A stretch of 64,000 bases of DNA, taken from contig JABDAU010000002.1 of NCBI GenBank assembly GCA_013289045.1, positions 28,493 to 92,492 of the forward strand, written 5' to 3'. Below are positions 54,464 through 54,826 of this stretch, in pieces. The first letter of the stretch is position 1. Each line of letters begins with the position of its first letter. Under the pieces are notes generated by a model. The model saw only the letters and a program-made list of their open reading frames with translations, did no database searches and had not been told where the DNA came from. This DNA comes from Bacteroidota bacterium (GTDB taxonomy: Bacteria; Bacteroidota; Bacteroidia; Sphingobacteriales; Sphingobacteriaceae). The translations under genes and the position numbers were made by a program.

Positions 54464-54592
54464 GATATTTGTTTTTTGCAGATGTTTTGAAAATAGATTG
54501 ATTAACGTTTGCGGTCGCGACAGGATAGAACATATCCTTAGCGGTTTACACGTATTTTTTCAGAAAAAGAAAGGGAATAGCGTGTTTCTGTC

Positions 54593-54709
54593 TTAACAAC
54601 AGCAGCAACACATACAAATACAGTTATTGGAGTAACTGTGTGCAACAAATGACGAACCTCTTAGAGGCTGTTCAGGATGGTTTTGGAAAATACTTTTTAA
54701 ACTTTTCAT
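54593..54709 (-). CDS. Putative Cys/Met-rich leader peptide (38 aa)
   Basis: Manual translation MKSLKSIFQNHPEQPLRGSSFVAHSYSNNCICMCCCCC*; lies between riboswitch and metY. Confidence 0.7.
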   Translation of the reverse strand: MKSLKSIFQNHPEQPLRGSSFVAHSYSNNCICMCCCCC

Positions 54710-54719
54710 GGTTTTAAAA

Positions 54720-54826
54720 TTTATAGTCCCCGGGATATTTACCGGGACAGGAATTGGCACCTTCTCTGTCCTTCAGAGGGTTGCCAGCGGGTCAGTGAGC
54801 CTGATCTCTCGCCGCTTCTTTATAAA
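54720..54826 (-). ncRNA. SAM-I (S-box) class riboswitch
   Basis: Minus strand TTATA-AAGAAGCGG-CGAGAGA-TCAGGCTC-ACTGA-CCCGC-TGGCAACC...GGTGCCAATTCC...TATAA upstream of metY-metX-hom; -7 promoter TATATTTG at 54881-54888. Confidence 0.92.

Follow-up and report, generated by a model that had tools for sequence, protein, structure and literature searches.

The window, i.e. the whole 64,000-nucleotide stretch of DNA that was analysed, belongs to a 64%-complete Mucilaginibacter assembly of 3.75 Mb and harbors the methionine genes metY, metX and hom, which are encoded on the minus strand together with an upstream SAM-I riboswitch aptamer and a short leader open reading frame (uORF). Judged by its sequence, the metY product is a member of the O-acetylhomoserine (and O-acetylserine) sulfhydrylase family, and the nearest relatives of the gene are found in Mucilaginibacter species, at 86-87% identity. 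The hom gene and the metX stop codon overlap by 4 nt. A second PLP enzyme of Cys/Met metabolism (PF01053, 371 amino acids) is encoded on the same strand at 57862-58977, 3.4 kb upstream of the leader, and may connect the homocysteine and cysteine pools. From the promoter region downwards, the features of the locus are:

54881..54888, minus strand: candidate Bacteroidota-type -7 box TAtaTTTG, read from the sequence
54829..54834, minus strand: 5' strand of the P1 extension (GGUUUU), paired with 54715..54710 in the minimum-energy fold
54718..54828, minus strand: SAM-I riboswitch aptamer (Rfam RF00162, 77.1 bits, E 2.3e-16)
54710..54715, minus strand: AAAACC, the 3' strand of the P1 extension, reaching to position -1 of the uORF AUG
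54593..54709, minus strand: leader ORF (uORF) of 38 codons plus TAA, conserved in 27 distinct leaders of the genus and across Bacteroidota
54596..54622, minus strand: putative regulatory codon run C-I-C-M-C-C-C-C-C with seven Cys and one Met, from the sequence and a conserved BLAST block
54582..54592, minus strand: segment 2, the complement of the Cys run, with an ACAC that is shared with the base of hairpin HP2
54548..54585, minus strand: predicted two-part hairpin HP2 (-7.7 kcal/mol, z -2.86), starting seven bases past the uORF stop
54522..54538, minus strand: predicted second small hairpin H3 (-5.4 kcal/mol, z -1.96)
54464..54521, minus strand: distal spacer, G-poor and A-rich by its C/G ratios, with the metY initiation region
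53138..54463, minus strand: metY (TIGR01326 with 680 bits, cut-off 495; PF01053)
51987..53042, minus strand: metX-like homoserine O-acetyltransferase gene (top NCBIfam match MetX, under the equivalog cut-off)
50755..51990, minus strand: hom, homoserine dehydrogenase (PF00742, PF03447; NF004976 exceeds its cut-off)

The candidate -7 box is of the Bacteroidota consensus type TAnnTTTG (PMC9723704) and has a TTTG about 21 nt upstream; transcription would start near this box. The uORF begins about 165 nt from the candidate promoter, behind the 111-nt aptamer. The RF00162 match exceeds the cut-off of 44.4 bits and covers model positions 1-108, the full four-helix length. SAM-I is the sole Rfam family matched in the whole window, and the aptamer at 54828..54718 is the only SAM-I match in the 64%-complete source genome. 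A first-pass annotation, made from the letters of the window alone, had placed a SAM-I riboswitch upstream of metY-metX-hom without naming the strand, and the Rfam match bears this out and puts it on the minus strand with the three genes, metX being no more than MetX-like.

The uORF extends from an ATG at 54709..54707 to a TAA at 54595..54593. It is the 38-codon frame of the first-pass annotation, which had also correctly described its C-I-C-M-C-C-C-C-C ending and the confinement of Cys to the final nine codons; of the distances given there, the spacer between aptamer and ATG is 8 rather than about 11 bases, and the distance from the uORF stop to the metY start at 54463 is 129 instead of 130 nt. 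A GTG start at 54760 that appears in the ORF listing lies inside the aptamer, and the conserved ATG was preferred to it. Scanning the 3.75-Mb genome in all six frames returned 24 short ATG ORFs with at least four Cys in the last nine codons. The genome maximum of seven Cys in the last nine codons is reached only by this uORF and by one on contig C39. The other Cys-tailed ORFs are not noise, since at least three of them sit in similar leaders.

Conserved Cys/Met-run uORFs past SAM-I aptamers in Bacteroidota, which the first-pass annotation had proposed to look for, were indeed found, so that a lack of conservation, named there as counting against the proposal, does not apply. In a sample of 80 named Bacteroidota metY loci, 67 carry an aptamer upstream of metY (confirmed by Infernal in all 20 that were checked), and 60 of these 67 have an ATG ORF whose start is no more than about 30 nt from the end of the aptamer. 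The frame of the start codon is open for at least 29 codons at 57 of the 60 loci, as compared to 2 and 19 loci for the other two frames. The last ten uORF codons at these 60 loci comprise 45.5% Cys and 8.8% Met, whereas the rest of the peptides contains 2.5% Cys and 2.2% Met; the Cys codons of the uORFs are TGT in 175 and TGC in 98 cases. Position, frame, length class and Cys/Met-rich tail are conserved across many families of the phylum, including Sphingobacteriaceae, Chitinophagaceae, Hymenobacter, Ohtaekwangia/Chryseolinea, Cyclobacteriaceae, Spirosomataceae, Saprospiraceae and Marivirga, while the peptide bodies are unlike each other. The tail is absent from some leaders of Algoriphagus, Spirosoma and Cyclobacterium. 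The combination of a drifting body with a conserved Cys/Met tail is, as a sequence pattern, typical of a codon-sensing leader peptide. The co-enrichment of Met goes beyond what the first-pass annotation had noted.

Within the genus, BLAST found the leader in 116 of 121 genomes, a tally that takes in one unpublished genome (G102) whose loci L116 and L165 were left out of the sequence analyses. Two blocks are conserved genus-wide: one comprises the aptamer and the start of the uORF, the other is the Cys run (BLAST query positions 208-243). In all 27 distinct leaders the encoded peptide closes with a run of this kind. Given that the run is the best-conserved nucleotide block, it might be thought that the frame is untranslated and the UGY run merely an RNA element, or that the Cys-rich peptide has an independent function, for example metal or redox binding. 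We regard both as very improbable: the ATG position, the open frame, the stop right after the run and the mixed use of TGT and TGC are conserved but the body is not, and a functional peptide is disfavoured because it would conserve more than its tail.

In a sample of the family, all 14 SAM-I loci linked to these genes, the one described here included, have an ATG ORF 8-11 nt past the aptamer; twelve of the encoded tails are Cys/Met-rich and two are R-M-R. No such uORF was found in the family sample at SAM-I riboswitches before metE, metH, cysteine-desulfurase-like, hom and cystathionine-synthase-like genes, and several of the family-sample SAM-I loci that lack the uORF carry strong hairpin-plus-U terminators.

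At four SAM-I loci of the family that precede TonB-receptor genes (L003, L005, L007, L031) a strong intrinsic terminator comes first and is followed by a separate short ORF that contains R-M-C or R-M-R, i.e. the same two parts with another wiring. Furthermore, Arg codons preceding Met in the metY leader ORFs are CGA in 15 of 15 cases, none of the remaining 71 Arg codons precedes Met, and within metY itself CGA accounts for 6.7% of Arg codons; the ending CGA-AUG-CGY-stop, with few Cys, is seen in some leaders of Sphingobacterium and Weeksella (the loci concerned are L054, L071, L087, L097, L102, L044, L050 and L088).

The absence of a terminator between the aptamer and the uORF, stated in the first-pass annotation, follows from the spacer itself, since a terminator is impossible within 8 bases. 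The minimum-energy fold of 54850..54703 (z -2.65) contains a 6-bp extension of P1 that spans a two-base bulge. Pairing of this type occurs in most loci with differing sequences, indicating covariation: the duplex between the flank and the linker has a mean energy of -4.85 kcal/mol for each locus's own pair against -3.40 kcal/mol for mismatched pairs, and none of 5000 permutations was as good as the own pairs. At 40 of 55 loci the duplex ends no further than 4 nt from the AUG or extends into it. Bacteroidota initiate translation without a Shine-Dalgarno sequence, on unstructured A-rich leaders, and a SAM-stabilised P1 reaching up to the AUG is therefore a plausible off switch for the uORF. Since the P1 extension to the start codon covaries, bound SAM most likely blocks uORF initiation, and the first-pass proposal that SAM controls this step thereby gains comparative support.

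The covarying extension suggests that the start of the uORF serves as the expression platform, which has consequences for how the riboswitch is classified. In an earlier classification, riboswitches with neither a terminator nor a nearby start codon are assigned to translation control by default, and a start codon within 15 nt of P1 is the criterion for a direct translational riboswitch (PMC2258182). The default class cannot be right for a gene located 250 nt away, as metY is. By the 15-nt criterion the element is a direct translational riboswitch, the target of which is the unannotated uORF and not metY.

Cys-tailed leader ORFs also occur elsewhere in the same genome in leaders without a riboswitch, which is a second point beyond the first-pass annotation. 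On contig C9, a 27-codon leader ORF with five terminal Cys codons and an M-R-M motif (L142:186-269, plus strand) lies 54 nt before a PhyH-like dioxygenase gene, with no SAM aptamer near it; relatives (L146, L147, L149, L150, L156) have, before the PhyH-like gene, short ORFs that start with or include M-R-M and carry four to six terminal Cys. The ORF on contig C39 (L143:228-350, plus strand) ends in seven Cys and one Met, has no aptamer and precedes a TonB-dependent-receptor-like gene by 239 nt. The block of promoter and uORF start of this latter type is present in up to six copies per relative genome before receptor and membrane-protein genes, and most of the copies (L158-L170) have Cys-tailed ORFs. 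A third leader, on contig C63 (L144:387-467, minus strand), contains tandem Cys/Met-tailed small ORFs before a thioredoxin-fold (AhpC-like) gene; the first ORF has CGAAUG in another frame, and a further CGAAUG contains the start codon of the second ORF. Like the metY uORFs, the dioxygenase and TonB-receptor leader ORFs have conserved counterparts in relatives that share the tail and diverge in the body; genome G102 is counted in this comparison too. Because conserved tails occur without an aptamer, the Cys tail appears to be an autonomous module, of which the metY leader is the riboswitch-preceded version.

These comparisons bear on one alternative, a relay in which SAM is the sole input and translation of the uORF as such shields the leader from Rho or RNases, the tail slowing the ribosome slightly or being incidental. 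It agrees with the reach of the P1 extension to the uORF start, the absence of an intrinsic terminator and the G-poor uORF body, and control of translation that is linked to Rho has been established for other riboswitches (PMC12360218). We nevertheless find it rather unlikely, since it leaves unexplained why a tail with 45% Cys and 9% Met is kept in nearly every clade despite the drifting body, and why leader ORFs without a riboswitch carry the same tail.

Downstream of the uORF stop, the codon run has a complement in segment 2, with the pairings GUGUU/AACAC and CUGU/ACAG. Both pairings, as well as the C/U-rich tract that follows, had been predicted in the first-pass annotation and are present in the sequence. 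Across loci, complements of the run downstream of the stop, judged by duplex energy, are commoner than in shuffled sequences (Wilcoxon p 2.5e-4), although the effect is modest with a mean z of -0.5. The alternative pairing of ACACG with a downstream CGUGU, likewise put forward there, closes HP2 between 54585 and 54548: it forms the base helix, UUUC/GAAA forms the apical helix, and the 5' side holds the C/U-rich tract (54580..54562). When the Cys run is included in the fold, it pairs with segments 2 and 3 and the base of HP2 opens (-12.9 kcal/mol, z only -1.1). The pairing of the run with segment 2 is weak, and the run itself hardly varies within the genus.

Support for HP2 comes mainly from folding each sequence alone. 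The architecture is predicted for all 27 distinct leaders of the genus, with energies between -8.7 and -18.9 kcal/mol and base helices that differ in sequence. Folding a plain MAFFT alignment of these leaders gives a weak consensus (-1.07 kcal/mol, 2 pairs with compensatory changes) because segment 3 is misaligned, and the individual folds were therefore used. A tract with at least 14 pyrimidines in 16 positions is found in 24 of the 27 genus leaders, whereas two control segments gave none of 27. The tract is thus pronounced in the genus, but modest phylum-wide. Both HP2 and the C/U tract characterise the leaders of Sphingobacteriaceae and those of the Hymenobacter type. The metY leaders of Cytophagales and Chitinophagales share a different element of about 45 nt directly past the segment complementary to the Cys run (L053, L058, L068, L069, L072, L074, L076, L091, L100), a nested hairpin with a GUGAC loop located about 20-90 nt after the uORF stop. 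An Rfam search over 20 related loci matched only SAM-I and one tRNA, so that this element corresponds to no described family. In view of the different post-stop element, the output step may differ between clades.

H3 follows HP2 and is replaced in relatives of the genus by a hairpin of different sequence at the same position; a U-tract after H3 is absent. No conserved intrinsic terminator was detected in the leaders: terminator-like sites turned up in 3 of the 27 leaders of the genus and in 16 of 49 from the diverse set, and their positions were inconsistent. A terminator-like site at 54669-54655, inside the uORF, was discarded because it is not conserved in relatives. This distribution also speaks to attenuation of the trp type, in which the hairpin of run and segment 2 plus a U-rich tract would act as a weak intrinsic terminator that a stalled ribosome blocks. 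The pyrimidine tract with U runs a few bases past the hairpin in the genus would suit such a design. We consider it quite improbable, however, with a stem of merely about 5 bp plus a few more, the few and inconsistently placed terminator-like sites of the genus, and the strong GC hairpins and U-tracts that SAM-I riboswitches of the same family use, so that terminators of this organism look different.

Rho-dependent termination is favoured as the output step by analogy. The terminator-free 129-nt spacer and the run ending at the stop codon constitute a tnaC-type layout, and we attribute the off state to Rho on three grounds, namely the lack of a terminator, a putative stall site directly at the stop and a C/U tract adjoining it, as in tnaC (PMC12360218). 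With no canonical terminator, the read-through postulated in the first-pass annotation would need to overcome Rho or another mechanism. For the uORF body the C/G ratio amounts to 1.7-2.0; in the distal spacer it is 3.45 for leaders of the genus and 2.18 for the diverse set. A low G content is common among leaders of Bacteroidota, and the Rho-loading-like composition is for this reason weak evidence.

A further possibility is translational attenuation as in mycobacteria, whereby the Cys run masks the A/C-rich initiation region of metY and a stalled ribosome unmasks it. This mechanism has been shown experimentally in Mycobacterium smegmatis (10.1101/834739). In the locus described here, as in several relatives, folding the whole leader to minimum energy pairs the run with the metY start, and the run binds the start region at -9.6 kcal/mol against -4.3 kcal/mol for the early part of the uORF. 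In the diverse set, however, the pairing is no better than with a shuffled start region or a neighbouring segment (p 0.89 and 0.92). The pairing therefore probably reflects base composition rather than a specific conserved duplex; we rejected it as specific evidence and hold the unmasking of metY to be improbable, if somewhat less so than termination of the trp type.

The reading that we prefer, with a probability of roughly 55%, is a composite leader in which two sensors act in series, one for SAM and one for Cys/Met-tRNA, with Rho providing the output. The first sensor would be the SAM-I riboswitch, with the start site of the leader ORF, and not that of metY, as its platform. With SAM bound, P1 and its 6-bp extension (54834-54829/54715-54710) would close up to position -1 of the AUG and keep ribosomes off. 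The second sensor would be the uORF itself: as its last nine codons hold seven Cys and one Met, a translating ribosome is expected to stall on the run if Cys-tRNA or Met-tRNA is scarce. The stalled ribosome would occupy the U/G-rich run and leave ACAC free, upon which HP2 could close and fold the C/U-rich tract away. If no ribosome is present, the run would pair with the post-stop segment and HP2 would stay open; it would likewise stay open with a ribosome at the stop codon, which would cover the ACAC segment. With the usual footprint sizes, a ribosome stalled three or more codons before the stop would leave ACAC uncovered. An open HP2 together with untranslated, G-poor leader RNA would enable Rho to terminate transcription before metY, similar to the situation in the tna operon.

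Translation of the uORF, stalling of the ribosome and Rho as the effector would thus yield three states. At high SAM the uORF would be free of ribosomes, the leader naked and the operon off. At low SAM with charged tRNAs, ribosomes would reach the stop codon and expression would be low or intermediate. At low SAM with scarce Cys- or Met-tRNA, a ribosome would be parked on the run, HP2 closed and the operon fully on. A strict AND gate, with the operon near off at low SAM and charged tRNAs, may be too tight for a biosynthetic operon. The existence and the conservation of the composite are well supported, and the output mechanism is what we infer from the layout of the leader.

Both halves of the composite are known separately, SAM-I riboswitches on the one hand and cysteine-codon attenuators from Actinobacteria and from cysS of Rhodobacterales on the other. 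A full-text literature search yielded cysteine attenuators and, separately, cases of a riboswitch plus a uORF, and no description of a SAM riboswitch gating a Cys/Met leader peptide was found. Among the attenuators, the closest system is the mycobacterial 'Cys ribulon' of short-ORF polycysteine attenuators (Canestrari et al., bioRxiv 10.1101/834739). Similar to the leaders described here, a short ORF with consecutive Cys codons comes first, before sulfur-metabolism genes at several loci per genome, and stalling of the ribosome is the proposed sensor for Cys-tRNA (10.1101/834739). Unlike the uORF behind the aptamer, the ORFs of mycobacteria are leaderless and lack a riboswitch, and their output is the unmasking of a downstream ribosome-binding site, a pairing that is unsupported here. 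The metY uORF differs further in its co-enriched Met codons and in the position of its run at the very C-terminus.

The closest case of a riboswitch plus a uORF is the mgtA leader of Salmonella, in which a Mg2+ riboswitch is combined with the proline-codon ORF mgtL and with Rho-dependent termination (PMC12360218). It shares with the metY leader the presence of a ligand-sensing RNA and a codon-sensing short ORF in one leader and an output attributed to Rho, but ligand, codons, phylum and layout differ. In the metY leader the start of the ORF directly adjoins the aptamer's closing helix, and the riboswitch is for this reason proposed to gate uORF initiation.

The E. coli tnaC-tnaA leader is comparable with respect to the stall at the 3' end of a short ORF, the terminator-free spacer of more than 100 nt and the C-rich tract by the stop (PMC12360218). 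The tnaC stall results from free tryptophan and the nascent peptide at the stop codon, whereas here a shortage of charged tRNA is proposed, and the role of Rho is one that we infer. In trpL, hisL, thrL and the cysS uORFC-8-2 of Rhodobacterales (PMC8632094) a run of cognate codons near the end of the leader peptide overlaps alternative pairings, as is predicted here; these leaders have an intrinsic terminator and no upstream riboswitch, and the metY leader is the reverse on both counts. Two-input control of a methionine gene is known from the metE leader of Bacillus clausii with its SAM-I and AdoCbl riboswitches (PMC2258182). There, each of the two aptamers has its own terminator, whereas in the metY leader the second sensor would be the ribosome.

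Extended to the phylum, the reading becomes tentative, and we think it is more probably wrong than right in its full breadth: metY SAM-I riboswitches throughout Bacteroidota would use a stalling leader peptide as their platform and form an AND gate with a Rho-loading tract hidden in a hairpin, the metY leader being one member of a phylum-wide set of Cys/Met-tailed leader ORFs, a sulfur 'ribulon' whose targets would include TonB-dependent receptors and dioxygenase-like genes as well.

It is customary to regard riboswitches and leader-peptide attenuators as alternative solutions. Here, the two occur together at a set spacing, the start codon lying about 8 nt from P1, and the uORF would supply a concrete expression platform for SAM-I riboswitches that have neither a terminator nor a nearby gene start. 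Such small ORFs are probably unannotated, and detecting them would improve the prediction of regulons; the compact device is also a candidate two-input part for the genetics of Bacteroidota. Enzymes of the MetY family can make both homocysteine and cysteine. A single mRNA leader probably reads the SAM level as well as the supply of Cys- and Met-tRNA, and the operon would in this way answer both to the methyl-donor pool and to the charging of the tRNAs for the two sulfur amino acids.
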